From the NCBI GenBank assembly GCA_963664625.1, contig OY761541.1, positions 2,187,670 through 2,251,669 of the forward strand: a DNA stretch of 64,000 bases, in the 5' to 3' direction. Position 1 is the first letter of the stretch. Each line of letters begins with the position of its first letter. Under the pieces are notes generated by a model, which saw nothing but the letters and a program-made list of their open reading frames with translations, made no database searches and had not been told where the DNA came from. The stretch comes from Dehalococcoidia bacterium. Its GTDB lineage: Bacteria; Chloroflexota; Dehalococcoidia; Lucifugimonadales; UBA3495. The translations under genes were made by a program, and so were the position numbers. This document shows positions 5,162 through 52,664 of the stretch, piece after piece.

Positions 5162-5335
5162 GGCGTAACTGAAAAAAGGAGCGGCCGGCCTCCGAAGAGA
5201 GGGGCCGCTGAAGGAGCGGCCCGCTGCCGGTCGCTGAGGAGCCAATAATACCTTGGTTGCGCAGGGTGGGTCAACCTGAAATTGTCTTAGGTGATGTCAC
5301 GTTTGAGGTGGTCTGTCCGTTGCCGACGGTACCGT

Positions 5336-5360
5336 GGATTCCCGCCTTCGCGGGAATGAC
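5336..5360 (-). repeat. REP-like palindromic repeat, copy 2
   Basis: ggattcccgccttcgcgggaatgac, intergenic. Confidence 0.9.
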
Positions 5361-5432
5361 GATGAATGGCCCCAGCGGTGTGCTATCATGGCAGGAATTC
5401 TACGGCTTGGGCCAGTGGGAAGAGGCCTATAT

Positions 5433-22735: not shown

Positions 22736-22981
22736 CTAAGACCTCCTGATTTCGCCAACGCAACAGCCTGCAGGAATCGACTTCTAGAAGTGGGAATGAG
22801 TTTACCACAGGAACCTAACATCGGACACTGGCATGGTCGGTGTCGCCGGCTGTTCGTGCCGGGCCGGGCTTGTGGCGTAGACTGGTGAAACCGCTGTTTG
22901 CATCCAAACTGTTGGCGCCCGTCGTAAGCTCTATTACCATCAGATTCAGGGATATGATTTATTATCTTGGGGCAAAGTGAA

Positions 22982-32579: not shown

Positions 32580-32728
32580 CCTCTTCTCACCTTCGGCTTC
32601 GTTTCACCGAACCCAGGCCTCTCTCCTTCGTCCGCCCTTGCCCTCAAAGTTCCCCGTCATCCGCAATGCGGATCAACAAAACCGCCAAACTTTGCATTGG
32701 CGCAAAGACTGAACAGAATTTAAGACTT

Positions 32729-32736
32729 TGTATAAT
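32729..32736 (+). promoter_or_regulatory. candidate -10 element (TG-TATAAT) in the leader of the tubulin-like operon
   Basis: Perfect TATAAT at 32731..32736 preceded by TG, about 120 nt upstream of ATG 32858. I found no convincing -35. Confidence 0.3.
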
Positions 32737-32857
32737 ACTTTTGCACAGGGCGCCAGGGCTTTTCACCCGCATCAAGGTCCATGGACGCCCCGGAATTAGC
32801 GGGAGTCTTGCCAACAAAATTGGAGAGACACCCAGTTACATAATCAAGGAGTTCGGC

Positions 32858-34114
32858 ATGAAGCTAGTCTTAGTGGGCGCAGGCCAGGGTGGTTCCAATA
32901 TAGCGGACGAGTTCGTCGCGCTTGGGAAATGGGTTTGGAAAAACAGGCGGATACGGATTTTCACTGGTTCGGAACACGATGACATTGCCAAGGGCGTGTT
33001 CGCAGTCAACTTGGGTGCGGGAGACCTCTACAGCCTTCAACACATCCCTCAAACCGAAGACCACACGATCCTGTTGGGAACGACCGACGAGTTCCGGGGG
33101 CGCGGCGCGGGTAAGGTCAATGCCGACGGCGCCGAGCAGGCTCGGCGGGGTGCGCACAAGATCGTGTCCACCATCCGCGACCATGGTGACGTTCCGTCGG
33201 CAGACGCCATCATGGTCATTGCCACCACTGCCGGCGGCACAGGCTCCGGCTCCGTGGGCGTCATCGTGGACTTGCTGAAAGACGCCTTCAAGAAACCCGT
33301 ATACGCTTTGTTGGTCCTTCCATTCGAGAACCAATATGACGATCCGGACAGCATGGTGAACACGGCCACCTGTATCAAGCGGGTGCTGGACAATTCCAAC
33401 GCCGACGCCGTTTTCTTTGTGGACAACCAGAAGTTCGTCCGCGGCAGTCAGTCGATGTCCTACAACTACCAGCAGATAAACCGCAAGATAGCCGATTCGT
33501 TCCTTGACATCCTGTGTGTTGGAGAGGAGACCGACCGGCGCTACATCGGTGAGGTATTGGACGCCAACGACGTGATACGCATCCTGCACGGCCCTACGGC
33601 GATCGGAGTCTCTCAGGCGACGGTGCCCAAGAAGAGCAGCAGCGGGTTGTTTGGCCGGTTACGCGGCGAACCCAAGGTCAATCACTTCTCAGTATCCAAG
33701 CTGCAAATAGAGCGGGCCCACAACGTGCTCCAGCAAGCGTTGGGCGAGTTGTCCATCGACTGCGAGGTCTGGGAAAACGGGTGTTCCTACTATGACGCCC
33801 AGAATGTGTTGGGACTCTTCAGCGGCCCCGTCGAAGAAGCCAGCGAAGAGATAGTGGAAATGATGGACACCACGTTGGCGGAACGGGTACCGGGCGCCGG
33901 GCGCCGGAAGGGCACCTACCCGGGCCGGGTTTCCGACACCATCGGCTTCACCATCGTTGTGTCCAATATCGGAAGGGGCGCGGCCATGGACCGGGTCGAG
34001 AAGTTCTTCCTCGACGCCACCAGAATGCTTGGCGAAGTCCAGCACAAGCGGGAGGGCAGAGAAAAACTGTGGGAAGCCACGGCCCGGACCGCATCGCAGA
34101 TCCCTGACCTGTAA
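32858..34114 (+). CDS. tubulin/FtsZ-superfamily GTPase, CetZ-like (not housekeeping FtsZ)
   Basis: ATG 32858 follows AAGGAG. T1 loop MKLVLVGAGQGGSNIADEF, T4 tubulin signature ATTAGGTGSGSVG, FFVDNQKF, T7-like VLDANDVIRIL. Confidence 0.8.
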   Translation: MKLVLVGAGQGGSNIADEFVALGKWVWKNRRIRIFTGSEHDDIAKGVFAVNLGAGDLYSLQHIPQTEDHTILLGTTDEFRGRGAGKVNADGAEQARRGAHKIVSTIRDHGDVPSADAIMVIATTAGGTGSGSVGVIVDLLKDAFKKPVYALLVLPFENQYDDPDSMVNTATCIKRVLDNSNADAVFFVDNQKFVRGSQSMSYNYQQINRKIADSFLDILCVGEETDRRYIGEVLDANDVIRILHGPTAIGVSQATVPKKSSSGLFGRLRGEPKVNHFSVSKLQIERAHNVLQQALGELSIDCEVWENGCSYYDAQNVLGLFSGPVEEASEEIVEMMDTTLAERVPGAGRRKGTYPGRVSDTIGFTIVVSNIGRGAAMDRVEKFFLDATRMLGEVQHKREGREKLWEATARTASQIPDL

Positions 34115-34176: not shown

Positions 34177-35127
34177 ATGAGGAGCTCGAGAGCGCCTGAG
34201 CACCGAAGCGGCTCATCAAGGCTCATAATATTACTGGGTTTGTTTGTCCTGGTCGTTGGCCTGGGCTTGGCCATTACCTACTTTACCCAAGGGTTTGGCT
34301 CGTTGTCGGCGGAGACCACCGAGCCGGTCCCCGCAGTAACTGGAACTGACGCCCCTTTGGCGCCGAAAGTAGTCTCTGGATCTCCGGCGTCCGACCGAGC
34401 GGAAATGAAGGCCGAAGTAGTGGTGCCGGAGTCCCAGGTTGACGAGCCCGCCGGGGAGGCCAAAATGGAGCCTGCCGCTCTTGGACGCGACTCTGGGGAA
34501 AATACGGTTGATGCTGCCAAAACGGAAGGATCGGACGGCGAGCAGACCCCATCCCTTGCCCAGGAGACGGAACGGAATTTGGAATTTTTGCCCCAGGTGC
34601 GGTTTGGCGAAGTGCTTGGCGAAGGGCTGATGGAACTGCCGATGCCCAGCGGAGAAAAGGTTGATACTTGGTACACCTTCCAAGTGGACACCACCAGCGG
34701 GGAAATCATAGTCTACTTCGCCTTGTTCGACGAGGAGGAACAGTCGATATTGAGCACCGTTCGAGTGGACAACTATTCCAAGGGCAATGACTTGACCCAG
34801 GCCGAAGTTACCCTTTTCTACGAAGACGGGATGCAACGGGTCATCGGATTTGACGGCGTTGCCGGCGCCATGTCCATCGCGCAACGCTATAATCTCCCCC
34901 AGGGCCCCAGCATCTTTTCACGCGAACTGCGCCGCTCGATGGTGTATCGAGGAATGGAGTTGAAGGACGCGGAGAATAACGCGTTCCTGGACTTGGACCT
35001 GGACGTAAGCGGCCTGTCCAGAGGTGAAAAGATACGCTTCACGCATTCGGCGCCCGCTGAAGTAGCGATGGCGTTGGAGGAGTTGAAGGAATTGATCGGC
35101 GTCATTGAAGTGGTGAGGCAAAGCTGA
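34177..35127 (+). CDS. single-pass membrane protein, partner of the tubulin-like GTPase (unknown family)
   Basis: AGGAGG RBS. R-rich N-terminus, TM helix LIILLGLFVLVVGLGLAITYF, acidic/Pro-rich linker, then a C-terminal domain of about 190 aa. The gap to the upstream gene is 62 nt and the two genes share one terminator. Confidence 0.7.
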   Translation: MRSSRAPEHRSGSSRLIILLGLFVLVVGLGLAITYFTQGFGSLSAETTEPVPAVTGTDAPLAPKVVSGSPASDRAEMKAEVVVPESQVDEPAGEAKMEPAALGRDSGENTVDAAKTEGSDGEQTPSLAQETERNLEFLPQVRFGEVLGEGLMELPMPSGEKVDTWYTFQVDTTSGEIIVYFALFDEEEQSILSTVRVDNYSKGNDLTQAEVTLFYEDGMQRVIGFDGVAGAMSIAQRYNLPQGPSIFSRELRRSMVYRGMELKDAENNAFLDLDLDVSGLSRGEKIRFTHSAPAEVAMALEELKELIGVIEVVRQS

Positions 35128-36260: not shown

Positions 36261-36336
36261 CATTCCCGCGAAGCCTGCCCCCAGGTTCCCGCCTTCGCGG
36301 GAATGACAAAGGTGGGGGGCGGGAATCCATAGGTCT
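36261..36336 (-). repeat. composite REP-like repeat cluster, copy 7 (half copy + full copy + gggaatccataggtc piece)
   Basis: cattcccgcgaag/cctgcccccag/gttcccgccttcgcgggaatgac ... ggcgggaatccataggtc. The last piece recurs at 52453..52467. Confidence 0.75.
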
Positions 36337-36592
36337 ATTCGTCTTCGTCGTTCAGGTCTATGGGAATCTTGATTGCGATCTTTGGCGTGCCGGCGTCGTT
36401 GTCCCGGTCGTTGCGCCTGGAATCTCCCCAAGCCCCCGCTTCGACGTAGTTCTTGAACTCGCGGACCTCGCCGCAAACCTGGCACACGCCTTGGCTGACC
36501 AGTCCATCGGCCGGTTGAATTACCCAGTAGTGACGGCATTGGGGCGCGGCCTCAGTCTCTTCGATTGTCTGGATGGCCGTGTTTTGGACCAT
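36335..36592 (-). CDS. small zinc-ribbon-like protein
   Basis: ATG 36592 follows GGAGG. MVQNTAIQTIEETEAAPQCRHYWVIQPADGLVSQGVCQVCGEVREFKNY has a C-x-H...C-x2-C pattern, followed by an acidic tail. Confidence 0.55.
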   Translation of the reverse strand: MVQNTAIQTIEETEAAPQCRHYWVIQPADGLVSQGVCQVCGEVREFKNYVEAGAWGDSRRNDRDNDAGTPKIAIKIPIDLNDEDE

Positions 36593-36850
36593 GGCCTCAT
36601 ACCTCCTTAAGATACAACGTAATGTTACCACCGAGTTGCGGTATTCGTCAATCATAGCAGGTAGTTGTTAACAAATATTTAACACCGTGTTAGGAATACG
36701 GACACGGCTTGGAATATCGAAATAGCTTTCGTTGGAACCGTGGATGTTGTAAGGGATTACAACCGGCGTGGCGGCCTGTGGGGCCGGAATTTCGAACGAG
36801 GGAGTATCCGGGGAGTTATGAGCAGTGTTGGAGGCGGCGGGACCCGGGAT

Positions 36851-37933
36851 TCAGCCCGGCAGCGAGACCTTTTCAGTGCTCATCCTGGTGACGCCCCAGC
36901 CGGCCAGCCACGCCGAATGTCTGCCGTCTCCTCCGGCGACCACCACCGCCAAGTCCTCGGCGGACCGCACTATGGGCACCAGTGTGTCCGGGTTGGTCTC
37001 GTCTATCCAGGTTGGCCAGTTGCGGTTGGCGTAGTGGGCCACGTCCTTCAGTTGGCGCAACGGCATACGGGCGTTCTGGTAAATGAACTCTCTCACGTCG
37101 TCCTTGGAGAGGCCGGAGTCGGCTATCTCGGCGGCGTGTTCCGGGCAAAGCACCACTATTATCTGCACGCCGGTGCCCAGTTGATAGTAACTGGGGATGC
37201 CCACCGCCTTCATGGTGCCGACGATCGTTTGGAGTACCTCTATGCCGGTGGAGACGGTGGTCTCCATCACCGGGTAGTTCCCCCGGATTCCGGCCACGGT
37301 CACGATGCTGTCGTCGGGGCCGAAACCCAGCTCCAAGTGCCGCGGCTCCCAAGGACTGCGGGCCTCGTTTTCAGCAAAGCAGAAGGTGTACCGGTCCGAT
37401 GACGCCAGCGTCGCCTTGTCCATGTCGCCCGGAATCAGCCCGCCAACATTGCGGACTACCAGCCGCAACGCCCGTCCGATCACCGCGTTGGCTTGGTGAC
37501 CGGGGCCAAAGCAACCAGTGTCGCCGTTGACGCCCAACTGGCGGGCAATGGGACCGTTCACAATCACCACCGGAGCCGCTCCGCCGGTGGTGGACGACAC
37601 TCCGGCCAGGTTGAAGTCATCCCGCAGCACCGCCCTTACCGCGGCCACAACCACGGGGAAATGCTCCGGCCCGCAACCGGCCATAGCAGCGTTGACCGCC
37701 ACCTTTTCCAGCGTGACCGGCGCATTGCGGGGCTGGATTACCCCCAAGGACTCCGAAGGGTCCCGGCCATACCGGCCCAGGACTTCCCGGACCAATTCCT
37801 CGGTGGCCGGAACAACCGGCAGCCCGTCGGTCCAGCCCTGTTTCACGTAGTAGTCCTGTATGGCCCGGGCCGAGTTATTGACTTCCACCCGGCGGGACTG
37901 GAGGGTTTGTGATTCCGTTTGCTCCCGCATCAT
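36851..37933 (-). CDS. conserved protein of unknown function (360 aa)
   Basis: Clean 360-aa ORF: QSRRVEVNNSARAIQDYYVKQGWTDGLPVVPATEELV..NAAMAGCGPEHFPVV..GVSSTTGGAAPVVIVNGP... A decayed 5' paralog copy lies at 38525..38712. Confidence 0.7.
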   Translation of the reverse strand: MMREQTESQTLQSRRVEVNNSARAIQDYYVKQGWTDGLPVVPATEELVREVLGRYGRDPSESLGVIQPRNAPVTLEKVAVNAAMAGCGPEHFPVVVAAVRAVLRDDFNLAGVSSTTGGAAPVVIVNGPIARQLGVNGDTGCFGPGHQANAVIGRALRLVVRNVGGLIPGDMDKATLASSDRYTFCFAENEARSPWEPRHLELGFGPDDSIVTVAGIRGNYPVMETTVSTGIEVLQTIVGTMKAVGIPSYYQLGTGVQIIVVLCPEHAAEIADSGLSKDDVREFIYQNARMPLRQLKDVAHYANRNWPTWIDETNPDTLVPIVRSAEDLAVVVAGGDGRHSAWLAGWGVTRMSTEKVSLPG

Positions 37934-38005
37934 GAGCCCAGTATAGTAGCTTCACCCTGCCGTCTCAAGCCACGGAGTTGTGGCTATTTCCACGGAGCGC
38001 CCTCG

Positions 38006-38296
38006 ATGCAGCCGATACGGACCATATTCGCCGGAGGCGGGGAACGGAGGCTCTCAACACACGTTCTTATCAGGATGAGAGAACGCAATATCCCCATAGA
38101 TTGGATTATTCAGGTGATAAATTCTCCGGCAGCAATTGAAGATGATGAATATAACGACTCTACAAACTACTATGGTTTCGTTGGAGGGAATGTTACGTTA
38201 CTGGTAGTTCCCATTTCCAAGAGAGACGGACAGACTATTCCGACGGCTTTCTTTGACGGACCAGCGACAAGAAGGTATCGGCGAGGTGAATTGTGA
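38006..38296 (+). CDS. DUF4258-like putative toxin
   Basis: MQPIRTIFAGGGERRLSTHVLIRMRERNIPIDWIIQVINSP... GTGA start/stop overlap with the next gene. Confidence 0.55.
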   Translation: MQPIRTIFAGGGERRLSTHVLIRMRERNIPIDWIIQVINSPAAIEDDEYNDSTNYYGFVGGNVTLLVVPISKRDGQTIPTAFFDGPATRRYRRGEL

Positions 38297-38520
38297 ACTT
38301 AGAAGCCAGCTACGATAAAGAGTTTGACATCTTGAGAATGCTCATTCCCGGACGGCGCATCGCAACGTCGAGCCGGGTCAGCCCGCCCCTGATAATCGAC
38401 TTTGGCAGCGAAGAGGACGGTTTTGATGTAGTAGGGTTTGAACTCAGCCATGCTTCAGAGCACTTGGCCCCGTTCCTCGAATTGCTGACCGAGCAGGCAA
38501 CAAGCGTGGAAAATGTTTAA
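38293..38520 (+). CDS. DUF2283-like putative antitoxin
   Basis: MNLEASYDKEFDILRML..IIDFGSEEDGFDVVGFELSHASEHL (YD.E.D.L / G.EiL.AS pattern). Confidence 0.55.
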   Translation: MNLEASYDKEFDILRMLIPGRRIATSSRVSPPLIIDFGSEEDGFDVVGFELSHASEHLAPFLELLTEQATSVENV

Positions 38521-38524
38521 CGTC

Positions 38525-38712
38525 GCCAAGTAAACGCGAATAGCCGGGCGACTCGTCGCAAGCCTCCAGCATCCTTCGTACCAGCGGTTCGGTAACTGGA
38601 CCACGGGCTGTCTGTCGGTCCAGCCCTGCTGGACGTAATAGTCCTGGATGGCCCGGGCCGAGTTGTTGACTTCCACCCGGCGCGACTGGAGGTTGATGTT
38701 TGTTGTAGTCAT
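38525..38712 (-). pseudogene. truncated, frameshifted 5' remnant of a paralog of 36851..37933
   Basis: MTTTNINLQSRRVEVNNSARAIQDYYVQQGWTD aligns with the N-terminus of the intact gene. In my hand alignment 69 of 76 nt are identical (38617..38692 vs 37829..37904). Similarity continues in another frame (TEPLVRRMLEA vs TEELVREVLGR) and stops at the TA cassette. Confidence 0.6.
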
Positions 38713-38760
38713 AACTTAAAAGAACCAGACACCTGATTACAAGGTAAGGTACAGAAGAGC

Positions 38761-40800
38761 CTACGGCACCAGTCCGAAAAACCGGCGTGGCGGTGCCACT
38801 TTTTGCCCTAAGAAGTCTTCCAACAGGTTCCTTTTCATGGCTATTTGGTCGGAAACGCTGGCGGTGTCGTCCAGTATCCAATCGGGAATGTCGGCCTTGG
38901 TCTGACGAGAAGTAATCGGCTCGACACCGACGATTACCAAGTTGCCGGATAGTGCCCAACTGCCTACAGCAGGACGCCGGTCCTTACTGTACTTGTCGCG
39001 GTGCAACAGGTTCTCCAGAACCATCCGGGGTCTGTCGAAAGCACGGTTCTGATACTCGTCCAGTGTCATGGGAGAGCACCACTCCGGGACTCTCGAATTC
39101 TCAGGAAGGTTCCGCTCGATTATCCGGCACAGGACTGTCGAAGATAGTTCAAGGACGTCCAGTCCCTCTTGTTTGTGTTCCGCGATTGCGTCCAATTCGC
39201 TTATAACATGGGCAAGGTATTCACTGTAAAGACCTGTGGTCAGCCGATCGCGTATGGCCGCCACTGACCTTTGAAGTCGGCGACGGGATGATGGGTCGTC
39301 GCCAGGTAATGAGGTGCGGGTGTAGATCATCAGGCATCGCTTGATGATTTCGGCGGGGAAATTGCGTGCCTCGGCATTCATGGATATGGCGAAGCATGGA
39401 TACTCGGCGTCATGAACCGTTTCGTCTTTAATTATCTCCGGTGCGTGACGATTGAAACGGTCTCTGGTCACGTCATCGAATACTATTGGGAATCGCAAGA
39501 AGTTCTGCTGCAATCCGCGCAAGCTGCTGCGCGTGAAAGCCTGCGTATCAACAATCTTGGGATGGCCGAACATCGAAACAAGCAGGGTCTCAATGAGGCT
39601 GCTCTTCCCGCAGTTGCTCTGGCCGTAGAGGACAGCGAACATGGGTTGATCGAAGCTGAAATTGCCCTGCCTGAGCGCGGAGTTTCGCAGGTCACACATC
39701 AGTGGGGCGAAGTAAAACCAGCACATAAATGTGAAGTAGTCGCGTTGCAACCGTGGAACGTCCCCAACAAACCCGTTTTCATAGTTCTCGAAAAACTCCA
39801 GGAACGCCGCCACATCGTTGCGAACGTCTTCCGGGCTTGCACCCAGGCTGATGTCTGTACCCGACAGGTTGAAGTGGTCACCGTTTCGGGTAAGAAATGT
39901 TTTCGGGGCTTCATCGTCTTTTCTGGTGATGGCAGTGCGGATAATCTCCCGCACTACTCGCGGCAATAGCTTGACGTTGCCGTCGCGGTCGGGGCGAATG
40001 TCGGCCAACGCCTGCCGGCGCACAGGACGGATTCGTTCAACGGTCTGCAACACTTGCGGTATGCTGAATTCAACCGTGTCGTCCGGCTCGGCGGGGACGT
40101 AAATGGTTACGCCATCAGCATGGGATTCCGCATCTTTGAGCACGGGAGTTTCCTCTAACGGCAAACTCTCGACGGCGATGGGTTTCTCTCTAAGGGGCAG
40201 GCTGCTGGTGGCGGTCTCGCGTACCGCCTCGTACTGGGCGCAGTAGTGCTGCCATGCTTCTTCGTCGTTGTCGAATACGATTAGGGTTTCTGCTTGACGC
40301 CCCGAAAAGGCTGTCTCCGACAAGTTGGCGGAGCCGACGATTACCCGTCGCAGTTCCGGTCGCTCAAGCAGATAGATTTTTGCGTGGGCGATGGCGTCCT
40401 TCACCACGTAGAACCTGGCAGTACCAGCGGCGGCCCGGTCGTAAATCAGGCGGCGTCGTTCCTCGGACATTCCCTTGATGCCAACGAACCCCTTGTTCAG
40501 CTTTTCGTCCACCACGCTTTGAAAGGACAATATGGCATCCACGTCACGCGGCAATATGCCGCCGTGACCAAAGACACACTCGAAATCTTGGAAGTCACAA
40601 TCTCTTAGCAGTGTCAGAATCATTGGGATGCTGGCGGTATAGGTGAGAGCCCGCATGGAGGTGAAATTGTGGAAAAGGCCGGGGTCAAACCGGCCTACAG
40701 ATTCAGCGCGTGCATAGACGACTTCCAGCGTATTGCTGCGAGTGCGAGACTCGGGGTCATCGAATTCAAAACCGGGCTGTGATTGACTCATTCTAGCCAT
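38761..40800 (-). CDS. single-HKD PLD-family nuclease fused to P-loop NTPase (candidate defence/selfish-element protein)
   Basis: HKD motif AHAKIYLLERPELRRVIVGSANLS (H139/K141 .. GSxN). Walker A LYGQSNCGKSSL (~393-401). Walker B PIVFDDV (~438-443). Composition is lower in GC than the flanks by eye. Confidence 0.75.
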   Translation of the reverse strand: MARMSQSQPGFEFDDPESRTRSNTLEVVYARAESVGRFDPGLFHNFTSMRALTYTASIPMILTLLRDCDFQDFECVFGHGGILPRDVDAILSFQSVVDEKLNKGFVGIKGMSEERRRLIYDRAAAGTARFYVVKDAIAHAKIYLLERPELRRVIVGSANLSETAFSGRQAETLIVFDNDEEAWQHYCAQYEAVRETATSSLPLREKPIAVESLPLEETPVLKDAESHADGVTIYVPAEPDDTVEFSIPQVLQTVERIRPVRRQALADIRPDRDGNVKLLPRVVREIIRTAITRKDDEAPKTFLTRNGDHFNLSGTDISLGASPEDVRNDVAAFLEFFENYENGFVGDVPRLQRDYFTFMCWFYFAPLMCDLRNSALRQGNFSFDQPMFAVLYGQSNCGKSSLIETLLVSMFGHPKIVDTQAFTRSSLRGLQQNFLRFPIVFDDVTRDRFNRHAPEIIKDETVHDAEYPCFAISMNAEARNFPAEIIKRCLMIYTRTSLPGDDPSSRRRLQRSVAAIRDRLTTGLYSEYLAHVISELDAIAEHKQEGLDVLELSSTVLCRIIERNLPENSRVPEWCSPMTLDEYQNRAFDRPRMVLENLLHRDKYSKDRRPAVGSWALSGNLVIVGVEPITSRQTKADIPDWILDDTASVSDQIAMKRNLLEDFLGQKVAPPRRFFGLVP

Positions 40801-41106
40801 TTTGGCTGATTAGTAGTCCACCATGCTAGGGAAAACTCAGAAGATAATGTAAGGACGTTATATTCTTCGGTCAGACGGTCCACTGCGTTTCGTCAATGGT
40901 TATACTTTCTGAATGGTCAACCTCCTTCGAGAAGGTGACTTGCCTCACCCCGGCAGCAGTCTATCCAAAGAGTCAACGAAACTGGCGACCTGCCCTAGCC
41001 GCATGGTCACACCGTCCCGGTCCAGCGTATCCTCGCCCAAGTATTCCCGGCTGCGTCCTGGTAGGTCTGTTCCCTTTGCATTGCCCCTCTCCCTTTCGGA
41101 CGGCTT

Positions 41107-41652
41107 CTACGCCCGTCCCGTAAGCAACCCCACAATCTCCGGCGCGTAATCGTGGGCCATCTGCTGCACCTCGGCGACGCTGCGGATTGCCAGCGGGCTG
41201 GGCAGCGTGACTATGCGGGCGCCGGGCATTCCCAGTATGGCGCAACGGGCTTGGGCGGCCCGCGTAAAGGCGCTGGTTATGACGCTGACTGACGGCACTC
41301 CCTTGGATTCGGTGGCTACTGTGTCGTGGAGACCCCACGTCGTGCAGGACCCTCAATCAGCCACGCCGTGGACCACCACGTCGCACTCGTTTATGAGAGA
41401 GTCGAGGGTTTCCACGGCGCACGGGGCGCTGTAGCTGTACTTGGTGGCGTACACCACTTTCTTCGCCCCGTACTCCCCGACCAGCACCTGCTGAAGCTCT
41501 CGCAAAAAGGAGTCGGCGTGGTACTTCCGGTTTTCCAGTAGCCCAATGGTCTTGCCTTCCAGCCCCGGCAGGTTGGGACTCAGGCCAAGCTCCTCGGGTA
41601 CGTCCTCCGCACGAGGGTCCAGTATTTCGATGGTGGAAGTCATGTCCGCCAT
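41107..41652 (-). CDS. UGSC-family selenoprotein (in-frame TGA = Sec at 41353..41355)
   Basis: Two same-frame ORFs (41353..41667 and 41107..41298) join through the TGA: ..VVVHGVAD-U-GSCTTWGLHDTVATESKGVPSVSVITSAF... ATG 41652 follows GGAGG. A SECIS-like hairpin lies 13 nt downstream. Confidence 0.75.
41325..41339 (-). other. candidate bacterial SECIS apical hairpin
   Basis: mRNA CGUGG-GGUCU-CCACG. The loop begins with GGU about 18 nt after the UGA. Confidence 0.45.
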
Positions 41653-41963
41653 GTTCAGCACCTCCAATAACGCTTGCCCTGGTGGGTTTCCCGCCCCCGC
41701 ATCCGCGAGGGCAGGCTCTTCGCGGGAAGACAGGAATGGGGACGGGCAACCAAGTCGTTGATTCGTGGTGATACGTTATTGTAGACAGGGCAAAATGTCC
41801 AGTAAAAGCGGGACGATCGGAGGGCCTTTCGATTCTTCGTCTGCACTGTGATTCATGGGATTGATGGATTGCCATGATTCGGAAAATCATGGTAATCCGG
41901 GAATCAAAGAAATCACAGTTCAGATAATTACCCCAAGGACCGAAGAGAGAACAGGGCGGCCGG

Positions 41964-43100
41964 CTACCCGGCCATCTGGAAGTATTTGCCCTCGGTCTTG
42001 ATGGAGGGGGCGATCACCATTTCCGCCTTGTGGAAGTCGCGGACGGTGTACGCGCCGCACATTCCCATGGACACTCGCAGGGCGCCAACCAGGTTCTGGG
42101 TGCCGTCGGTGCGGCTGCTGGGGCCGTACAGGATCTGTTGGAGAGGCCCCTTGGTGCCTACCTTGATGCGGGTGCCCCGGGGCAGTTCAGGATGGGCGTT
42201 GGCCATTCCCCAGTTGTAGCCGCGGCCCGGCGCCTCTTCCGCTTGGGCGAAGGGGGTGCCCAGCATCACGCCGTCGGCGCCGCTGGCTATGGCCTTGCAA
42301 ACATCCCCCCCGGTGCGCAGTCCTCCGTCGGTGATGACGGTGACGTAGCGGCCGGTGCGGCGGAAATAGTCTTCCCTGGCGGCCGCGCATTCCAGGGTGG
42401 CGGTCACTTGGGGTATACCCACCCCGGTAACCTCGCGGGTGGTGCAGGCCGCGCCAGGTCCCACGCCGACCAGGATGCCGTCAATGCCGGTCTGCATCAA
42501 TTCTTGGGCTACGTTGTAGGTAACGCAGTTGCCCACCACCACCGGCACCTTCAGGGCGTCGATCAGTTCGGAGAACACCAGCCCCCGGTAGCTGCGGGAC
42601 ATGTGCCTGGCGGTGGTGACGGTGGACTGGACCACTACGATGTCCGCGCCGGCCTCCACGGCCACCGGGGACATTCGCTTGGTTGTCTGGGGGGTGAACG
42701 AAACGGCGCACACTGCGCCGGACCTGCGGATTTCCTGGACGCGCTCACCGATAAGGTTTTCTTGGATCGGCTCGGAGTAGACCTGTTGCAGGTGCCCGGT
42801 GACCTCCTCCTGGGGCATGGAGGTAAGCTCTTCAAGCACTGAGTAGGGGTCTTCGTAGCGAGTGTACAGGCCTTCGGCGTTCAACACCCCAAGGCCGCCC
42901 ATCTGGTGCATCAAGGTCGCAAAGCGGGGCGACACCGCTCCGTCCATCGCGGACGCAACAACGGGTATGTCGAAAGCCCTGTCGCCGATGGTCATCTTGG
43001 TCGAGGTCAGGTCCGGGTTGATGGTAACCTCGCCAGGAACGATCGCAACCTCGTCAAAGCCGTAAGACCTTTCCAACTCTTTGAACAGGCGCCTCGGCAT
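41964..43100 (-). CDS. GuaB3-type IMP dehydrogenase-related protein (no CBS pair)
   Basis: YGFDEVAIVPGEVT, VVASAMDGAVSP, GVGPGAACTTREVTGVGIPQ, ITDGGLRTGGDVCKAIASGADGVMLG. 378 aa. Confidence 0.85.
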   Translation of the reverse strand: MPRRLFKELERSYGFDEVAIVPGEVTINPDLTSTKMTIGDRAFDIPVVASAMDGAVSPRFATLMHQMGGLGVLNAEGLYTRYEDPYSVLEELTSMPQEEVTGHLQQVYSEPIQENLIGERVQEIRRSGAVCAVSFTPQTTKRMSPVAVEAGADIVVVQSTVTTARHMSRSYRGLVFSELIDALKVPVVVGNCVTYNVAQELMQTGIDGILVGVGPGAACTTREVTGVGIPQVTATLECAAAREDYFRRTGRYVTVITDGGLRTGGDVCKAIASGADGVMLGTPFAQAEEAPGRGYNWGMANAHPELPRGTRIKVGTKGPLQQILYGPSSRTDGTQNLVGALRVSMGMCGAYTVRDFHKAEMVIAPSIKTEGKYFQMAG

Positions 43101-43308: not shown

Positions 43309-43426
43309 TCCTGGTGGTTTGAGCGTGGCGGACCCACCCGTTCCCATCCCGAACACGGTAGTGAAACGCCTCAGCGCCGACGATACTGCCTTGGTAACGG
43401 GGTGGGAAAATAGGTCACCGCCGGGG
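43309..43426 (+). rRNA. rrf: 5S ribosomal RNA (stand-alone, no 23S/16S nearby)
   Basis: Conserved core ..CACCCGUUCCCAUCCCGAACACGGUAGUGAAACGCCUCAGCGCCGACGAUACUG..AAUAGGUCACCGCC... Terminal helix CCUGGUGG/CCGCCGGG. Confidence 0.9.
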
Positions 43427-43706: not shown

Positions 43707-46193
43707 ATGGGAAGTCGGTTCGAGAAATTCTCCGAGAGAGCCCGCCGGGTTTTATCGTTGGCGCAGGAGGAAGCCCAGCGATTCAACCATAACTATATTG
43801 GCACCGAGCATATTCTGTTGGGGTTGGTACGGGAGACCGAGGGCGTCGCCGCCCGGGTCCTGTCCAGCCTGACCGTGGACCTCAGCAAGGTTCGCTCTGC
43901 CGTTGAGTTCATCATCGGGCGCGGCGAGAAGCCGGCCCAAGGGGAGATCGGGCTGACCCCGCGCGCCAAGAAGGTAGTGGAGTTGGCCGTCGACGAAGCC
44001 CGCCGGATGAACCACACCTATATAGGGACTGAACACCTGCTGATTGGCTTGCTCCGCGAAGGAGAGGGCGTGGCCGCCGGAGTGCTGGAAAGCTTGGGGG
44101 TCACTCTTGACAAGGTGCGGGCGGAGACCCACCGCATTTTGAGCCACAGCGCCGGCGCCGGTACTCAAGGCTCTCGCACTACTTCCCGTACTCCTACGCT
44201 TGACCAGTTGGGCGTTGACCTGACGGTGGCCGCCAGGTCCGACAAGCTCGACCCGGTTGTGGGACGGGAACAGGAAATCCAGCGGGTGATACAGATACTC
44301 AGCCGCCGCACCAAGAACAACCCCGTCCTGGTGGGCGAACCGGGCGTCGGCAAGACCGCCATCGTAGAGGCTTTGGCCCAGCGCATCGGCGGCGGAGAAG
44401 TGCCGGAGACCCTGCAAGGCAAGCGTCTCGTCACGCTGGACATGGGGGCTTTGGTGGCGGGCACCAAGTACCGCGGCGAGTTCGAGGAACGCCTCAAGAA
44501 GGTCATTGACGAGATCAAGACGTCCGGCAACTGCGTGTTGTTCATCGACGAGGTGCACACCATCGTGGGAGCAGGGGCCGCTGAGGGCGCAGTCGATGCG
44601 TCCAACATCCTCAAGCCGTCGCTGGCCAGGGGAGAGCTCCAGTGCATCGGCGCCACCACCCTGGACGACTATCGCAAGTACGTTGAGAGAGACCCGGCCT
44701 TGGAGCGAAGGTTGCAGCCTGTCCGGGTGGAAGAGCCCACCAGTGACGAGACCATCCAGATTCTCCAGGGCGTCAAGGGACGCTACGAAGACCACCATAA
44801 GGTGGACTTCACTGACGAAGCGATACGGAACGCCGCCGTGTTGGCAGCGCGGTTCATCTCCGACCGCTTCCTTCCTGACAAGGCCATAGACCTGATCGAC
44901 GAGGCCGGCTCCCGTGTACGCCTGCGGGGCAGCGTTACCCCGGCATCGGTGAAAGACGCGATGCAGGTGCTGGAGGAGGTCCGAAAGGAAAAGGACGAGG
45001 CCATCGCCTCTCAGCAGTATGAAGCCGCCGCCGAGTTGCGCGACCGCGAATTGCGCCACAATGCCGACCTGAACAACCTGGAAAAGGAGTGGCAGGAAGG
45101 CCGCGGCAAGGACCGGCCGGTGGTCACCGAAGATGACATCGCCGAAGTGGTGAGCATGTGGACCGGCATCCCGGTGACGCGGCTCGCCCAGGAAGAGACC
45201 GACCGCTTGCTTCGCATGGAGCAGGAAATCCACAAGCGCATCATAGGCCAGGACGAAGCTATCGTCGGCATCGCCAAGTCGGTGCGAAGAGCCAGGGCGG
45301 GCCTGAAAGACCCCCGGCGTCCCATCGGCGTGTTCCTGTTCCTGGGTCCCACCGGCGTCGGCAAGACCGAGTTGGTAAGGGCGATGGCCGAGTTCATGTT
45401 CGGCGACGAAGATACCATGATCCGGCTGGATATGTCCGAGTTCCAGGAGCGGCACACGGTGGCCCGGCTTATCGGCGCTCCTCCGGGTTACGTTGGCTAC
45501 GACGAGGGCGGCCAGTTGACCGAGGGCGTCCGCCGGAAGAACTACTGCGTGGTGTTGCTGGACGAGATAGAGAAGGCCCACCCCGAGGTCTTCAACATCC
45601 TCCTGCAGATTTTCGACGCCGGCACTTTGACCGACGCCAGGGGCCGCAAGGTTGACTTCCGGAACTCCATACTGGTGATGACCAGCAACCTTGGCTCCGA
45701 CCTGATCAAGCGGGAGACCAACCTGGGCTTCAGCATCAAGACCGACCAAGCCCAGACCGAGGAGAGCTCCTACCAGCGGATGAAGGACAAGGTGATGGAC
45801 GAGGTGCGACGCTTCTTCCGTCCCGAGTTCCTCAACCGCATCGACGCTACGGTGGTGTTCCACCAGCTCAACCGGGCGGAAATCCTGTCCATCGTGGAAC
45901 TTATGATAGGACAGGTCCGGAAAGAGCTGGACGAGAAGAAGATTGCCCTTGAGATAACCGAGGCAGCCCGGGAGCACTTGGGAGAAAAGGGGTTCGACCC
46001 GGTAATGGGCGCCCGCCCGTTGCGTAGGCTGATCCAGAACGTGGTCGAAGACAACCTGTCGGAAGAGGTGCTCAGCGGACGGTTGAGCGCCGGGGACACC
46101 GCGTTGATCGATGTGGAAGAGGGAGAGGTCGTGATTCGCAACAAATCAAAAATGGATGCGGAGATACCCGCTGAAGCTGCTACCCCCGCATAG
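43707..46193 (+). CDS. clpC: ATP-dependent Clp protease ATP-binding subunit ClpC
   Basis: ATG 43707 follows AGGAG. Double Clp_N ([40 protein letters not shown]), two AAA+ modules ([18 protein letters not shown]), UVR-like linker. Confidence 0.95.
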
Positions 46194-46234
46194 TCCGTAT
46201 CCCACGTCTTCCCCGTGAAGCTTGCCCCCGGCGC

Positions 46235-46259
46235 GGATTCCCGCGCAGGCGGGAATGAC
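46235..46259 (-). repeat. REP-like repeat, copy 8
   Basis: ggattcccgcgcaggcgggaatgac. Confidence 0.9.
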
Positions 46260-46268
46260 GGTTGACAG

Positions 46269-46298
46269 AAGGCCCCGCCAGCGCGGGGCCTTTCGATT
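46269..46298 (+). terminator. hairpin terminator after clpC (member of a second repeat family)
   Basis: aaggccccgc-cagc-gcggggcctt followed by tcgatt. A near-identical hairpin lies at 52601..52630. Confidence 0.45.
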
Positions 46299-46444
46299 AG
46301 GGCAGGCGGCGGGAAACTATATAGTCTTGCCAAGAGAAGTGCCTGCCCCTGTGGAGACGGGGGTTGCCAAACGAAAAAGGATGATCGGATGGGATAAGTA
46401 ATGCGCCGCCAGGCGCTTCGCGTCCAGAGCCGTGGCTGGAAAGA

Positions 46445-47695
46445 TTGCTGGTTGTATCCCTCTTGGTGATGTTGAACCTGCCGGCAGTCTTGACTGGCGT
46501 CACCGGAATGGACCAGTACGGGTTCTTCACCCTTGACCCGGTGGCGGGCCGGCCGTGGCCGCTGCTTCTTTCCCTTGCGCTGGGCTCCGCCTCCGCCGGA
46601 GCGGGTTATCTCGCCTACCGCCTGTTGCGGCGGCGGGCTTGGTTCGTCGGCAACCGGTACGAGGCTTACCACCACAACGCAGTGGTCTTCGGAACGCCGG
46701 TCGCTGTTGCTTTCCTCCCGGTGTTCTTTCTTACCGGTTACGACAACAAGCCCCTCGTGGTGGGCGTGGCCGGAATCATGGCGACTTCGCTGTGCCTCAT
46801 TGCCGCCCTCAACGACCACAAAATCCGTATCGACGCCGCAATGGCCCGCGCGTTGTTCGTTGTCGGCGCCGCCATCATCCTGGTATTGCTGGCCCTGTCC
46901 GTATCGGGGATGCTGGCGATGTATTTCATTGAGCACTCGCCTTCCGGCGGCAACTTTTTCTGGACTTGGGAGTTCGCTTGGAGCGATTTGGGCTACCCGG
47001 CGGAAGAATTCAGCCAGCGGCATCGAAACGGCCTGTTGGCTTTCGGCGTCGCCGGGACCGTCTACATGACCGTCGCCCTCGGCGCCCCCTTGCTGGGAGA
47101 AGTCCTGAGCTTGTCGCAGCGCAAGCCGGGGAAGGGCGCCGTTCCGGTAACGGCGGCAGCGGCGCTCTCCGAACAGCCGGAGACGTTCCCGGACCTGCCG
47201 GATGCCGTAGAAGCCCAGTCTCAGGACCCGCCGGAGTTTGTGGCCGTGCTGGACGGGCGCGAGGAGGAAATCGACCGGGGCCATTACGAAAACCTGCTTG
47301 CCGAGAAAGACCGCCTTCTGCCCGACACCAAGCTGCTGGTGGACAAAATCTCCGGGGACGTGTTCGCCAAGGTTGGCGGTTCCTGGAGAAAAATTGTTTT
47401 CCGAAAGCGGCAGGCGCCGTTCCAGTTGCTGTGCGTTTACGCCCGGCATCCGGGAAGGCGGTTCACCGTCCAGGAGCTGGAAGCGCTGCTGTGGATGGAG
47501 TTGCCGGAACGGTCGGACTTCAACGTCAACGACCTTTTAGCCCAATTGCAGAGGAAGCCCCACGTCCCCGTCGAGCGTGACGAGGACGGCTCTTACATTC
47601 CCGAATCGGTCAGGGTCTGTTTCCTGGACTACCAGCCCTGCCCTGCCAACGACTCCCCCACCCCGGATGTTTCAATGCCCGCATCGTTATCATAG
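46445..47695 (+). CDS. polytopic membrane protein with C-terminal OmpR/PhoB-type winged-helix DNA-binding domain
   Basis: The N-terminal ~220 aa hold 5-6 hydrophobic helices. The C-terminus FQLLCVYARHPGRRFTVQELEALLWMELPERSDFNVNDLLAQLQRK matches the trans_reg_C pattern (LL..La..pG..vs.eeL...lW....). The start is uncertain (TTG 46445 or ATG 46508). Confidence 0.65.
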   Translation: MLVVSLLVMLNLPAVLTGVTGMDQYGFFTLDPVAGRPWPLLLSLALGSASAGAGYLAYRLLRRRAWFVGNRYEAYHHNAVVFGTPVAVAFLPVFFLTGYDNKPLVVGVAGIMATSLCLIAALNDHKIRIDAAMARALFVVGAAIILVLLALSVSGMLAMYFIEHSPSGGNFFWTWEFAWSDLGYPAEEFSQRHRNGLLAFGVAGTVYMTVALGAPLLGEVLSLSQRKPGKGAVPVTAAAALSEQPETFPDLPDAVEAQSQDPPEFVAVLDGREEEIDRGHYENLLAEKDRLLPDTKLLVDKISGDVFAKVGGSWRKIVFRKRQAPFQLLCVYARHPGRRFTVQELEALLWMELPERSDFNVNDLLAQLQRKPHVPVERDEDGSYIPESVRVCFLDYQPCPANDSPTPDVSMPASLS

Positions 47696-47728
47696 CGTAA
47701 TCATAGAGAAATCATAGTGTAATCATAG
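47689..47728 (+). promoter_or_regulatory. array of four ATCATAG direct repeats at 11-bp spacing (candidate winged-helix operator)
   Basis: ATCATAG at 47689, 47700, 47711 and 47722. The first overlaps the TAG stop of 46445..47695. Confidence 0.55.
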
Positions 47729-48083
47729 TTGTACCCCTCTTTACGGATACTATTACGGTGGTTAGGGTAGAGCTATCAGTCGGGGCTTCCTGGTATGACG
47801 ACGTCGCCTCCGTCGCTATTCCGCGTGTTGCCTCCGCCGTAACGGCCCAGCCCAAGCCCTGGGCCGGGCATTAAGTTTTTGGGATGCGCTTATGCAAGTG
47901 AATCTTGCGCTTAGTGAAACAGTTAGGCTATCAATTGAGAGGGGGAATCCCATTCGATAGCTTCGTTCATTTAATCGAAACCGCCCGCCAAGCCAATGTC
48001 CGCGGGTGACGTCCGCTGCTTCCTCCGGTAAATCGTTGATGCGGGGCGGGTGATTCTACAAGGAGAACGAAGGAGAAAACGTT

Positions 48084-49067
48084 ATGACGACGCAAATCAC
48101 CAACGCGGCCAATGAGTTGTTGGAAGATTGGCTCCGGAAATCGTGGCTGCGACGAATATTCCTGCCGGGGGATTTCTTGGAGCAGGTCGGCGAGGTCGGC
48201 TCGGAGAACTTAGTTTGCCAAAAGACTGCTACCGAGTATCTGACTATGAGCGAGCAGGTGGAGACGAAGACCGTCCGCGGCAGCGACGCCGGCAAATACT
48301 CCACCAACATAAATTACCTGCCGCAAGAATTCAAAAACGAGACCATCAAAATAATCACCAACAATATGGATGTTGGATGCGGCGAGTGTTCCGGAAGAGG
48401 GGCAGTCGCCTGCCCGACCACAATGAGGTGCGGAGAGTGCAAAGGGTCCGGTCAGCGCAGCGGCCGCCGTGAAGAATGCACACAGTGCGATGGAAATGGC
48501 GAAGTCAAGCAAGCCGGCTTTATGAATTTCTCCAAGGAGCGTTGTATGACCTGCTCCGGCTCGGGCAAGCGCATGGTCACTGGCCCTTGCGGGAGATGCG
48601 GCGGGAGAGGCCAGGAAATCTGCAATAAATGCAATGGAAGCGGGTCTGTATCCTGTGGTCAATGCGAGGGCTTGGGCAAGCTGGTGCAGGGCGACTTCAT
48701 AACCAGGAAGTTTTCATGCTTGAAAGAGTTAACGTACCAATTGAGCGGGTTGGGAGAGAATGAGTTCAAGAATGGTCTGGCCGGGGAGCACTTCAAGTCG
48801 ATGGCTGGGGATGAAATACGTCAAGAATTTCAGACTCCAAGCTATGCGGATACGGTGTTGCAGCGGGAGACCGTCCATTCTTATGACGTGCTTTCGCACC
48901 ACTACGTTTACAGGGACGAACCATTCTGCTTGAACCGCATAACTTCCGCCGTCGCCTTGAAGTACGTGGCCTCGGGCGTGCCTTTGTCCAAGGTCAAGGT
49001 TGCCGTGATAGGCGCGTTGGCGTCCGTTGTTGCAGTATCCGCCGCAGCCCTGTTGGTACTGCTCTAG
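48084..49067 (+). CDS. tail-anchored protein with seven DnaJ-type CxxCxGxG zinc knuckles
   Basis: AAGGAG RBS. Knuckles: CGECSGRG, CGECKGSG, CTQCDGNG, CMTCSGSG, CGRCGGRG, CNKCNGSG, CGQCEGLG. C-terminal TM segment VAVIGALASVVAVSAAALLVLL. Confidence 0.75.
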   Translation: MTTQITNAANELLEDWLRKSWLRRIFLPGDFLEQVGEVGSENLVCQKTATEYLTMSEQVETKTVRGSDAGKYSTNINYLPQEFKNETIKIITNNMDVGCGECSGRGAVACPTTMRCGECKGSGQRSGRREECTQCDGNGEVKQAGFMNFSKERCMTCSGSGKRMVTGPCGRCGGRGQEICNKCNGSGSVSCGQCEGLGKLVQGDFITRKFSCLKELTYQLSGLGENEFKNGLAGEHFKSMAGDEIRQEFQTPSYADTVLQRETVHSYDVLSHHYVYRDEPFCLNRITSAVALKYVASGVPLSKVKVAVIGALASVVAVSAAALLVLL

Positions 49068-49350
49068 GGGCGCGGGAATACTTGCCTTGCGGCTTGGGCT
49101 ACTGCCACAGGTCAAGAACTGTGTATGCTGGCGGGCATTCTATCGCCTGCGCCGGAACAGGCGCCATACGGGGGTGGCGAAGCCGGGAGGAGAAGGATGC
49201 ACTGGGCAAAGAGCAGATTTTTCCGGCGCCTCGCAACGGACGGTCCAGCCTACGCGGCAGACGCCCCCGCCGCCTCCTGCCGCGCCCGTCGTCGAAATTA
49301 CCGAGTTGGAGCAGCAGATTATGGAGCGGGTAAACTGAGCCCGCATCGTT

Positions 49351-49368
49351 ATCATAGCCTTATCATAG
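49351..49368 (+). promoter_or_regulatory. two ATCATAG direct repeats at 11-bp spacing (second copy of the operator module)
   Basis: ATCATAG at 49351 and 49362. The identical 20-mer gcccgcatcgttatcatagc occurs at 49339..49358 and 47677..47696. Confidence 0.5.
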
Positions 49369-49525
49369 TCCTACTCCCTTTACTATCGCCGCCAAGGTAG
49401 GGAAGAATTGCCTGAGCCTGTCGCGGCGATTGCGCTTTTGTTGCCGGTTTTCAGGCCCCGGTCTTTCCCCGGAGCGATTTTAGAATCGCGCCTTGGTCCG
49501 GTAATAGAGGTCTTTGGGGGTGTCT

Positions 49526-52132: not shown

Positions 52133-52332
52133 AGGACGTGAGAGGCACGTATGATGCCGTCTATAAGTTCCTCGGTGTACCCGAAGGGACTAGGTATTAT
52201 CCGTTGCAGGATGCCATGTTACGGGCGTGCGAGAATGGATATATTGGAAAGGGGCACAATTTTACCAGTGAGCAAATAGCCTGGAGGTGCGAGCAGGGGC
52301 TGGAGTGGGGGACTCCGTATCCGGATAATTAG
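52102..52332 (+). CDS. overlapping small ORF or frameshifted C-terminal continuation of the RCC1-LRR protein
   Basis: 76 codons in the other frame, overlapping the last 31 nt of 49526..52132. The only start is TTG. The protein-like sequence LFSVLHSADLKDVRGTYDAVYKFLGVPEG.. contrasts with the odd main-frame tail SCSACCIRRT. Confidence 0.35.
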   Translation: MFSVLHSADLKDVRGTYDAVYKFLGVPEGTRYYPLQDAMLRACENGYIGKGHNFTSEQIAWRCEQGLEWGTPYPDN

Positions 52333-52435
52333 CTGGGAATGCCCGCGGCCGGGCCGCGTTCTCCGGCTGTTTCTGCCGTGCTATGATTGGCTGTGCGATG
52401 TGGTAATCCCCCGGCCGGGGCAGGCCTGTTTACGC

Positions 52436-52459
52436 GTCATTCCCGTTTCCACGGGAATC
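52436..52459 (+). repeat. REP-like repeat, variant-loop copy 9
   Basis: gtcattcccgtttccacgggaatc. Confidence 0.8.
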
Positions 52460-52503
52460 CATAGGTCGTTCGGCAAGGTAAATTTGCTATTGCGAGGCGG
52501 TGT

Positions 52504-52528
52504 GGATTCCCGCCTTCGCGGGAATGAC
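52504..52528 (-). repeat. REP-like repeat, copy 10
   Basis: ggattcccgccttcgcgggaatgac. Confidence 0.9.
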
Positions 52529-52664
52529 GCCTGCCCTCGTGGAGACGGGGGGTGGACCGGCAAACTAGCGCACACGACTTTGCACAGGTCTTATGACAGA
52601 AGACCCCGCCAGCGCGGGGCCTTCCGTTGTTATAATTGGTCAACCCTGATTGGGAGGTCAACGG

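Follow-up and report, generated by a model that had tools for sequence, protein, structure and literature searches.

UGSC was described as a major selenoprotein family of the Global Ocean Sampling (GOS) metagenomes, in which 255 selenocysteine (Sec) forms and 21 cysteine (Cys) forms were counted, and it was catalogued as a selenoprotein family with selenocysteine insertion sequence (SECIS) elements (PMC2398784). Zhang and Gladyshev (2008) noted for its members a UxxC motif (U, Sec), a 'likely Trx-like fold' (Trx, thioredoxin) and a fusion with a domain termed 'Unknown_1' (PMC2398784). Recent reviews list UGSC without a known function (PMC13188914, PMC9312934). Here we examine a 64-kb stretch of contig OY761541.1 from a Dehalococcoidia bacterium (the window, to which all unqualified coordinates refer). 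We find that the minus-strand frame 41652..41107 is, with high probability, one gene for a 180-residue UGSC selenoprotein of SAR202-type Chloroflexota (Dehalococcoidia), that its in-frame UGA would be decoded as Sec by means of an mRNA hairpin, and that its product would form a module with a 360-residue protein encoded nearby.

The frame consists of 181 codons and contains a lone in-frame TGA at 41355-41353. It opens with an ATG (41652-41650), runs through 99 sense codons to ..VVVHGVAD, reaches the TGA, continues as GGG TCC TGC.. for a total of 80 sense codons and closes with a TAG (41109-41107). On read-through the product is 180 residues long with Sec as residue 100 (..HGVAD-U-GSCTTWGLHDTVATESKGVPSVSVITSAF..GRA-TAG; junction across residue 100, ..HGVAD-U-GSCTTWGLHDTVATESK..), and a Shine-Dalgarno-like GGAGG (41661..41665, minus) is read 8 nt 5' of the ATG. 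In a mechanical list of open reading frames (ORFs) the gene appears as two pieces, 41353..41667 and 41107..41298, that share one frame; the ORF ends, the shared frame and the TGA coordinates on which the original prediction was built were all found in the sequence as claimed. For comparison, 86 related loci were assembled, 6 by exact protein look-up and 80 by scanning a single genome for each species. Almost all come from metagenome-assembled genomes (MAGs) of Dehalococcoidia, SAR202 or Chloroflexota, and several lie on closed chromosomes of 3-5 Mb. The window gene product is 97% identical over residues 1-178 to those of the Dehalococcoidia MAG loci L007-L009, and relatives at this level of identity with complete chromosomes are OZ253476.1, OZ241919.1 and CBDCFV010000005.1. 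The downstream piece had been proposed to have no start of its own, its apparent GTG start being a Val codon, and the homologues agree: GTG stands at codon +19 in only 38 of 86, with mostly GTT or GTA otherwise.

The family assignment was made with U replaced by C in the query. By this approach the product matched NCBIfam NF041046, 'UGSC family (seleno)protein', at 138 bits (cut-off 125; profile positions 1-147 of 147, residues 32-178) and Pfam PF24696, 'UGSC', at 169 bits (cut-off 25; profile positions 1-171 of 172). Both alignments extend across the UGA and cover both halves, so the UGSC identity given in the original prediction holds at curated cut-offs; together with the translation, the two matches define 41107..41652 (minus) as a complete gene. 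The U/C-G-S-C motif is present at the conserved site of the family as HGVAD-U-GSC (41355..41344), its first residue being the predicted Sec-UGA (41353..41355, minus), and in a 64-sequence alignment G101 and C103 are invariant and C100 nearly so. The window gene thus shares with the described family (NF041046/PF24696; PMC2398784) the U-G-S-C motif, the occurrence of Cys in some homologues and a SECIS directly 3' of the UGA. The fusion with an unknown domain reported in PMC2398784 is also recovered here, the partner being most likely 'Unknown_1', and no feature of the gene argues against membership. Two differences were found: the fold predicted here is flavodoxin/Rossmann-like and not 'likely Trx-like' as in PMC2398784, and the Dehalococcoidia/SAR202 clade carries a short hairpin variant of 5 bp with a GGUCU loop. 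The gene is therefore an ordinary member of an already described family, one which Sec-aware annotation pipelines already name, and will not surprise a specialist.

The TGA itself is conserved. The aligned codon is TGA in 86 of 86 Dehalococcoidia/SAR202 loci and likewise in 112 further metagenomic genes, for which the scan pattern itself requires TGA. When only the C-terminal half served as query, a full HMMER scan of 1.84 billion representatives recovered about 50 full-length homologues (165-290 residues) with C-G-S-C in the aligned position, such as P0125 (VHGVAD-C-GSCITWG); the question of whether Cys aligns with the TGA, left to alignment by the original prediction, is answered by these proteins, which place Cys in that column. 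The genetic code is standard, as 11 of the window's 34 Pfam-supported genes end in TGA as a normal stop. One locus of the related set, L080 (match 5204..5740), was found to carry a TAG (..GSCTA*GLHD..) at the otherwise invariant Trp codon UGG of the SECIS stem; this gene has probably been inactivated, or the assembly is in error.

The putative SECIS upper hairpin (41325..41339, minus) is composed of CGUGG (41339-41335), the loop GGUCU (41334-41330) and CCACG (41329-41325). It begins 13 nt past the UGA and its apical loop 18 nt past it, so the fold, offset and spacing that had been claimed are present in the sequence; with nucleotides counted from the U of the UGA, G23-U24 corresponds to 41333-41332. 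Published criteria for bacterial SECIS (bSECIS) elements are a loop of 3-9 nt, an upper stem of 4-16 bp and a G at one or both of the two leading loop positions (the G[G/U] pattern), together with a UGA-to-loop spacing of 16-37 nt and a minimum free energy (MFE) of at most -7.5 kcal/mol (PMC13188914, Fig. 2 legend). The window hairpin has a 5-nt loop (GGUCU) that opens G-G-U, a 5-bp stem and a spacing of 18 nt, in agreement also with the looser rule given in the original prediction (a G at the loop start, 16-37 nt from the UGA). Its MFE depends on the stretch folded, being -5.8 to -7.1 kcal/mol for the 15-18-nt hairpin alone, -6.8 with an outer helix and -10.6 to -11.9 for a 42-45-nt fold. This possible outer helix of 3 bp, formed by CUG (41347-41345) with CAG (41321-41319) and spanning 41319..41347 (minus), appears in the RNAalifold consensus of 67-79 SAR202 sequences and is regarded as tentative; the Thr codon +11 is ACA or ACG in 71 of 79 sequences, which fits pairing with U10, whereas ACC is preferred for Thr at other positions.

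The E. coli fdhF SECIS provided a close point of reference. Its sequence was checked (100% fdhF match in 5419 of 5426 E. coli genomes), and fdhF does carry GGUCU, as expected from the earlier statement that its loop contains GGUC. In both genes the SECIS lies immediately 3' of the UGA and inside the coding sequence, and in both the GGUCU occupies nt 22-26 from the U of the UGA. G23-U24, the SelB contacts in the fdhF SECIS, have identical spacing in the window hairpin. By contrast, the sequence of the window stem differs from that of fdhF, no equivalent of the bulged U17 is present, and a conserved lower helix that includes the UGA is missing. Whereas fdhF has a 4-nt loop closed by A-U, the window hairpin has a 5-nt loop on a stem of 5 bp, or a GUC triloop on a stem of 6 bp if a G·U pair is counted. 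By analogy to canonical bacterial Sec decoding, the UGA at codon 100 would be read as Sec during translation, with the hairpin just 3' of it recruiting SelB·GTP·Sec-tRNA(Sec) to the ribosome, where this complex would compete with release factor 2.

Of the explanations that differ from this one, read-through of the UGA by some means other than Sec survives best, and we still consider it very improbable. A near-cognate Trp or Cys tRNA, or a reassigned UGA, would insert the residue, and the hairpin would merely stimulate read-through; that Sec machinery was not found in the window or in the related loci is what such a reading can draw on. It is at odds with the use of TGA as terminator by 11 of 34 well-supported window genes, with the alignment of the UGA to the redox Cys of a CxxC-type motif (the classic Sec/Cys signature), with a G-U dinucleotide in the loop that is kept in the register of the E. 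coli SECIS, and with the cataloguing of the family among selenoproteins with SECIS elements (PMC2398784).

The case for the hairpin was taken from patterns of nucleotide conservation. Synonymous entropy was calculated for 84 distinct SAR202-clade genes over 140 conserved degenerate codons. The median over the gene was 1.37 bits, and values below 0.15 were detected at six codons only: codon -1 (GAU, 84/84), +5 (GCG in 63/63, the Thr variants having ACG), +7 (GGU), +8 (CUC), +9 (CAC) and +10 (GAC, 83/84). Codons +5 and +7 to +10 coincide exactly with the hairpin. As the hairpin is invariant in the SAR202 clade and shows no covariation there, a wider metagenomic set was gathered with the pattern GAY-TGA-GGN-TCN-TGY-N15-CAY-GAY, which yielded 112 further distinct Sec-UGSC genes and an alignment of 113 rows. 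The residues specified by the hairpin codons of these genes differ (among them WGL, CSV, CSL, WSV, CCM and CCT). Over the 113 sequences, and uncorrected for phylogeny, 90.7% of cells in the helix nt 15-22 × nt 26-33 can pair compared to 83.9% on shuffling (reached in 0 of 500 shuffles), and the covariation score is 0.202 compared to 0.104 for shuffles (0 of 500), and controls with slid partners do not exceed 0.122. At pair 21-27, 74 sequences have C-G, 37 have G-C, 1 has G-U and 1 has U-A, and none is unpaired; pair 18-30 is G-C in 81, G-U in 30 and A-U in 2; and the loop G23-U24 is kept in 112 of 113. The Val/Leu codon +8 ends in C in 27 of 28 genes in which codon +6 is UGG, and in G in 54 of 54 in which it is UGC (Fisher p = 8e-21, uncorrected for phylogeny), such that the same amino acid is encoded differently and pair 21-27 is kept. 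Taken together, the invariance at synonymous sites and the compensatory changes across the family bear out the SECIS reading first put forward from a single sequence, and CGUGG-GGUCU-CCACG is a well-supported candidate for the recoding (SECIS) hairpin.

That the conservation after the UGA has some other origin, such as a constraint on codon usage or amino acids, or a hairpin that acts in pausing or regulation, is scarcely credible. The helix does sit in the most conserved peptide segment, its sequence is invariant and hence shows no covariation in the SAR202 clade, and its thermodynamic z-scores are unremarkable. None of this accounts for invariant GGU, CUC and GCG codons in a gene that uses several codons for the same amino acids elsewhere, or for a helix that is kept by compensatory and synonymous changes across the WGL, CSV, WSV and CCM clades, and the position, loop content and spacing match the bSECIS model.

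An observation on codon -1 (Asp, 41356..41358) stands beside these results. This codon is GAU in 84 of 84 SAR202-clade genes, while GAC prevails elsewhere (83/84 at codon +10), and in the wider family it is GAU in 72 of 117 genes compared to 35% GAU at other Asp codons. The preference may be a context effect on UGA recoding.

Translation appears to continue directly past the UGA, since the first codon after it already varies synonymously (GGC, GGG, GGA or GGT). Mean column identity in the 86-locus set is 0.86 for the C-terminal half and 0.78 for the N-terminal half, and pN/pS is 0.22 downstream and 0.27 upstream of the UGA. Candidate start codons downstream of the UGA are each present in at most 44% of homologues, and no conserved start codon or ribosome-binding site (RBS) was found there in the 86 homologues. 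In public data the gene is nevertheless cut: among 5.8 billion proteins searched, 532 homologues were found, and the best 120 of these all terminate at ..[AIV]D, 115 at exactly 99 residues, indicating that all were cut at the same TGA. The original prediction had named two outcomes that would speak against it, homologues that end at the TGA and halves that are separate genes; 86 of 86 loci were found to keep both the TGA and a conserved, selected frame beyond it, and coding conservation was found to begin right after the TGA. On comparative grounds a Sec codon is usually recognised by a conserved UGA, selection beyond it and Cys homologues, and sequence comparison shows all three for this predicted one. 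The idea that the TGA is a genuine stop, of a decayed gene or of a 99-residue N-terminal protein followed by an independently started C-terminal one, can be given almost no weight, for the split made by gene callers in every database entry, the calling of some C-terminal fragments from an internal GTG or ATG and the lack of Sec machinery in the window are set against a TGA kept in 86 genomic loci and 112 metagenomic genes, a GSCTxWGLHD segment right after it that is the most conserved part of the protein and varies synonymously, purifying values of pN/pS with no conserved start or RBS, and Cys homologues that are single full-length proteins, so that the comparative data contradict the pseudogene and the two-gene readings alike.

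To predict the fold, the closest Cys homologue, P0125 (40% identical), was modelled with AlphaFold2 from a 60-row alignment. The model (pLDDT 92.2, pTM 0.84) has five beta-alpha units, with CGSC between strand 106-112 and helix 115-130. By Foldseek against the Protein Data Bank (PDB) it matched only generic flavodoxin/Rossmann-like structures (lumazine synthase, the FMN reductase MsuE and GTPase domains) with TM values not above 0.5; proteins of the thioredoxin fold and PrdB/GrdB were absent from these matches. PDB profile searches and Pfam scans of 60 UGSC members returned only UGSC itself, plus NifU in 3. A thioredoxin fold (beta-alpha-beta-alpha-beta-beta-alpha, CxxC at the N-terminus of helix 1) was set aside, given the five beta-alpha units predicted for P0125 and the lack of a Trx match. 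Kinship to PrdB/GrdB (PF07355), which a 'UxxC…PHP' pattern had suggested, found no support either: the 60 members gave no PF07355 match at E values up to 5, and no PDB profile or fold match was found. A 1346-residue protein with 8 matched stretches, P0127, proved to be a low-complexity repeat protein and no relative.

If the window protein resembles the model, it would fold as a five-strand parallel alpha/beta (flavodoxin/Rossmann-like) domain with U-G-S-C between strand 3 and the N-terminus of the next helix. In common with Trx-, Prx-, AhpD-, SelW-like and PrdB/GrdB (PF07355) selenoproteins, UGSC pairs its Sec, at the junction of a strand and a helix, with a resolving Cys located three residues further on. 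As in UxxC/CxxU redox selenoproteins, Sec and Cys interchange among its homologues; it differs in having no sequence match to any of these families (Pfam scan, 60 members). From the motif and its predicted position at a helix N-terminus, a redox role of the U-x-x-C pair is most likely, in which Sec100 and Cys103 would cycle between a selenol/thiol pair and a selenenylsulfide.

The original prediction had speculated on a link to a family represented in the window by the 360-residue protein unk360 (36851..37933, minus), and this link is now strongly supported by gene fusions and by adjacency conserved in either order. Several full-length UGSC homologues of about 410-570 residues are fusions. The window 360-residue protein is 41% identical to the C-terminal 337 residues of P0145 (E 6e-80), whose N-terminus passes NF041046, and 34% identical to P0148 (E 2e-63). 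In the SAR202 set, a homologue of the 360-residue protein is encoded downstream on the same strand in 82 of 86 loci and is directly adjacent in 65; in 17 of the 82 it lies more than 1.5 kb from the UGA. Among the metagenomic Sec-UGSC loci with flanks on both sides (n = 54), the partner is immediately adjacent on the same strand in 51, upstream in 35 and downstream in 16, and in 4 of 5 sampled contexts of distant Cys-type UGSC genes a homologue stands alongside. That the two genes stay adjacent while their order changes, and are fused in some proteins, argues strongly for a functional module. Most likely, the UGSC protein would be the redox-active subunit of this two-gene module.

The partner family is large (at least 4,824 matches) and unannotated, and the 360-residue protein gave no Pfam, NCBIfam or PDB sequence match. 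It was modelled with a pLDDT of 84 and a pTM of 0.85, and the model had no PDB fold match below E = 1e-3. Invariant residues include, among others, Cys87 (in AMAGC), T116, N149, R154, D172, E188 and N189. In some lineages UGSC carries, at one terminus or the other, a fused NifU-like CxxC domain (P0140, P0178, P0196, P0233, P0224), or this domain is encoded by a separate gene of 90 residues, as at L088 (3617..3889), where the gene lies directly upstream of a Cys-type UGSC gene. This small domain would join the module in those lineages and hints at Fe-S or thiol chemistry. We put forward tentatively, as something short of an even chance, that UGSC and the 360-residue protein form a widespread, uncharacterised, selenium-dependent two-component enzyme, accompanied in some lineages by the small NifU-like CxxC domain.

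Other neighbours were considered as well. The protein unk316 (34177..35127) is not a paralogue of the 360-residue protein. The upstream neighbour (41964..43100, minus) encodes a GuaB3-family IMP-dehydrogenase-related protein (TIGR01304, 438 bits, cut-off 342); such a gene lies upstream in 82 of 86 SAR202 loci but in only 3 of 132 other loci (L087-L218), and GuaB3 was rejected as a functional partner on the ground that it is adjacent only within the SAR202 clade. A small Cys-rich ORF (36335..36655, minus; ..QCRHYW..GVCQVCGE..; 85 residues in relatives) follows the partner gene in 72 of 86 SAR202 loci; it gave no family match and could be a clade-specific third component or mere synteny. In one Sec-UGSC lineage (L096-L098, 1213..1734) the 360-residue partner is missing, and the gene lies between a 522-residue AhpC/TSA-like gene and an Exo_endo_phos gene. 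The AhpC/TSA protein of the window (22967..24559) is not homologous to this AhpC-like gene.

Several observations weigh against the reading of the locus as a Sec-decoding UGSC module. No tRNA-Sec was detected by ARAGORN in the 64-kb window or the 86 related loci (about 1.6 Mb); no SelA, SelB or SelD was found among 40 window ORFs scanned with Pfam, nor did tblastn with E. coli SelD and SelA queries bring up such a gene in the 86 related loci. The Sec-decoding capacity of the source genome is thus assumed. The reviews cited above contain no biochemical evidence for any UGSC family member (PMC13188914, PMC9312934). The hairpin is short (5 bp, -5.8 to -7.1 kcal/mol), and its single-sequence fold has no extra stability over shuffles (z = +1.3 and +0.75), so it cannot be argued from energy and its significance comes from the comparative data only; these covariation statistics are uncorrected for phylogeny and concern a helix within coding sequence. 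Rfam has no family at the site at the gathering threshold or at E values up to 10. The predicted fold is that of P0125, which stands in for the window protein. Finally, a 3.2-kb islet separates the partner from the UGSC gene in this window, and co-transcription is unlikely here. With respect to the machinery, its absence from the source genome is very unlikely, given that in dozens of genomes the UGA, the frame and the hairpin have been maintained by selection. A SelD-like match in L051 turned out to be ThiL, followed by TsaE, and no convincing candidate for a further selenoprotein gene passed the hairpin and GC3 filters in the window and related loci. The sole Rfam match, to a long non-coding RNA at low stringency, was spurious.

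The islet (37895..41119) is specific to the window, as determined by megablast against L001, L007, L008 and L009: synteny with relatives of 85-92% nucleotide identity breaks at about 41120 and resumes at about 37894. Its GC content is 0.53-0.57 compared to about 0.60. It carries a 679-residue PLD/NgoFVII-like ORF (38761..40800, minus; Pfam; P-loop GQSNCGKSS), a DUF4258 ORF (37919..38296, plus; Pfam), a 75-residue ORF that overlaps the latter (38293..38520, plus) and a decayed 5' copy of unk360 comprising its first ~40 codons (38599..38706, minus; tblastn, 81% identity over residues 6-41). The lower-GC islet and the decayed second copy described in the original prediction are accordingly real, and so is the expectation that UGSC would adjoin the 360-residue gene if the islet were removed, as relatives have a gene of 356 residues directly after UGSC. 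Inserts differ among the relatives: L009 shares the DUF4258 part only, L008 has another insert of 3.7 kb and L003 has three other genes of unknown function. The spacer between UGSC and partner looks like an insertion hotspot.

Further features of the window were recorded. A second window-specific island (46192..52593) lies between ClpB-like and RadA/KaiC-like genes that are adjacent in relatives; it encodes a 416-residue ORF with no Pfam match, a 327-residue protein whose only domain is a DnaJ CXXCXGXG zinc finger and an 872-residue protein with DUF192, RCC1-repeat and LRR regions. A lone 5S rRNA gene (43310..43426, plus; 88 bits) separates the GuaB3 gene from the ClpB-like one, and neither a 23S nor a 16S gene is nearby, which indicates that the rRNA genes are unlinked in this genome. 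The gene at 32666..34114 (plus) is syntenic to one in relatives (L001, 14844..16100) annotated with Tubulin and CetZ_C Pfam domains. A CetZ-like tubulin homologue would be unusual for a bacterium. A HEPN plus nucleotidyltransferase protein and two Uma2-family putative endonucleases are dispersed at 1296..2108, 5334..6248 and 26820..27551, and these genes with the two islands point to a genome that has many small genes of the defence or toxin-antitoxin type. Promoter and terminator scans of the window gave counts at chance level.

UGSC is among the most abundant predicted selenoprotein families of aquatic metagenomes (PMC2398784). In every public record examined, including NCBI 'hypothetical protein' entries, the SAR202/Dehalococcoidia orthologues are cut to 99 residues, and the window gene is a clear case for fixing truncated UGSC annotation. 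To what was already described, the present analysis adds quantitative support for the SECIS, a revised assignment of the fold and a two-gene module that is firmly established. The register of G23-U24, which resembles that in E. coli, suggests that the gene could be expressed in this host with no re-engineering; the function of UGSC is also made experimentally approachable by a nearly obligatory partner gene, which lies on either side of the UGSC gene or is fused to it. If the two-component enzyme proposed above is real, a selenoprotein subunit with a flavodoxin-like fold would be joined to a catalytic subunit whose fold has no clear solved relative, the module would be a core, syntenic feature of SAR202/Dehalococcoidia genomes, and new reductase chemistry would be conceivable.

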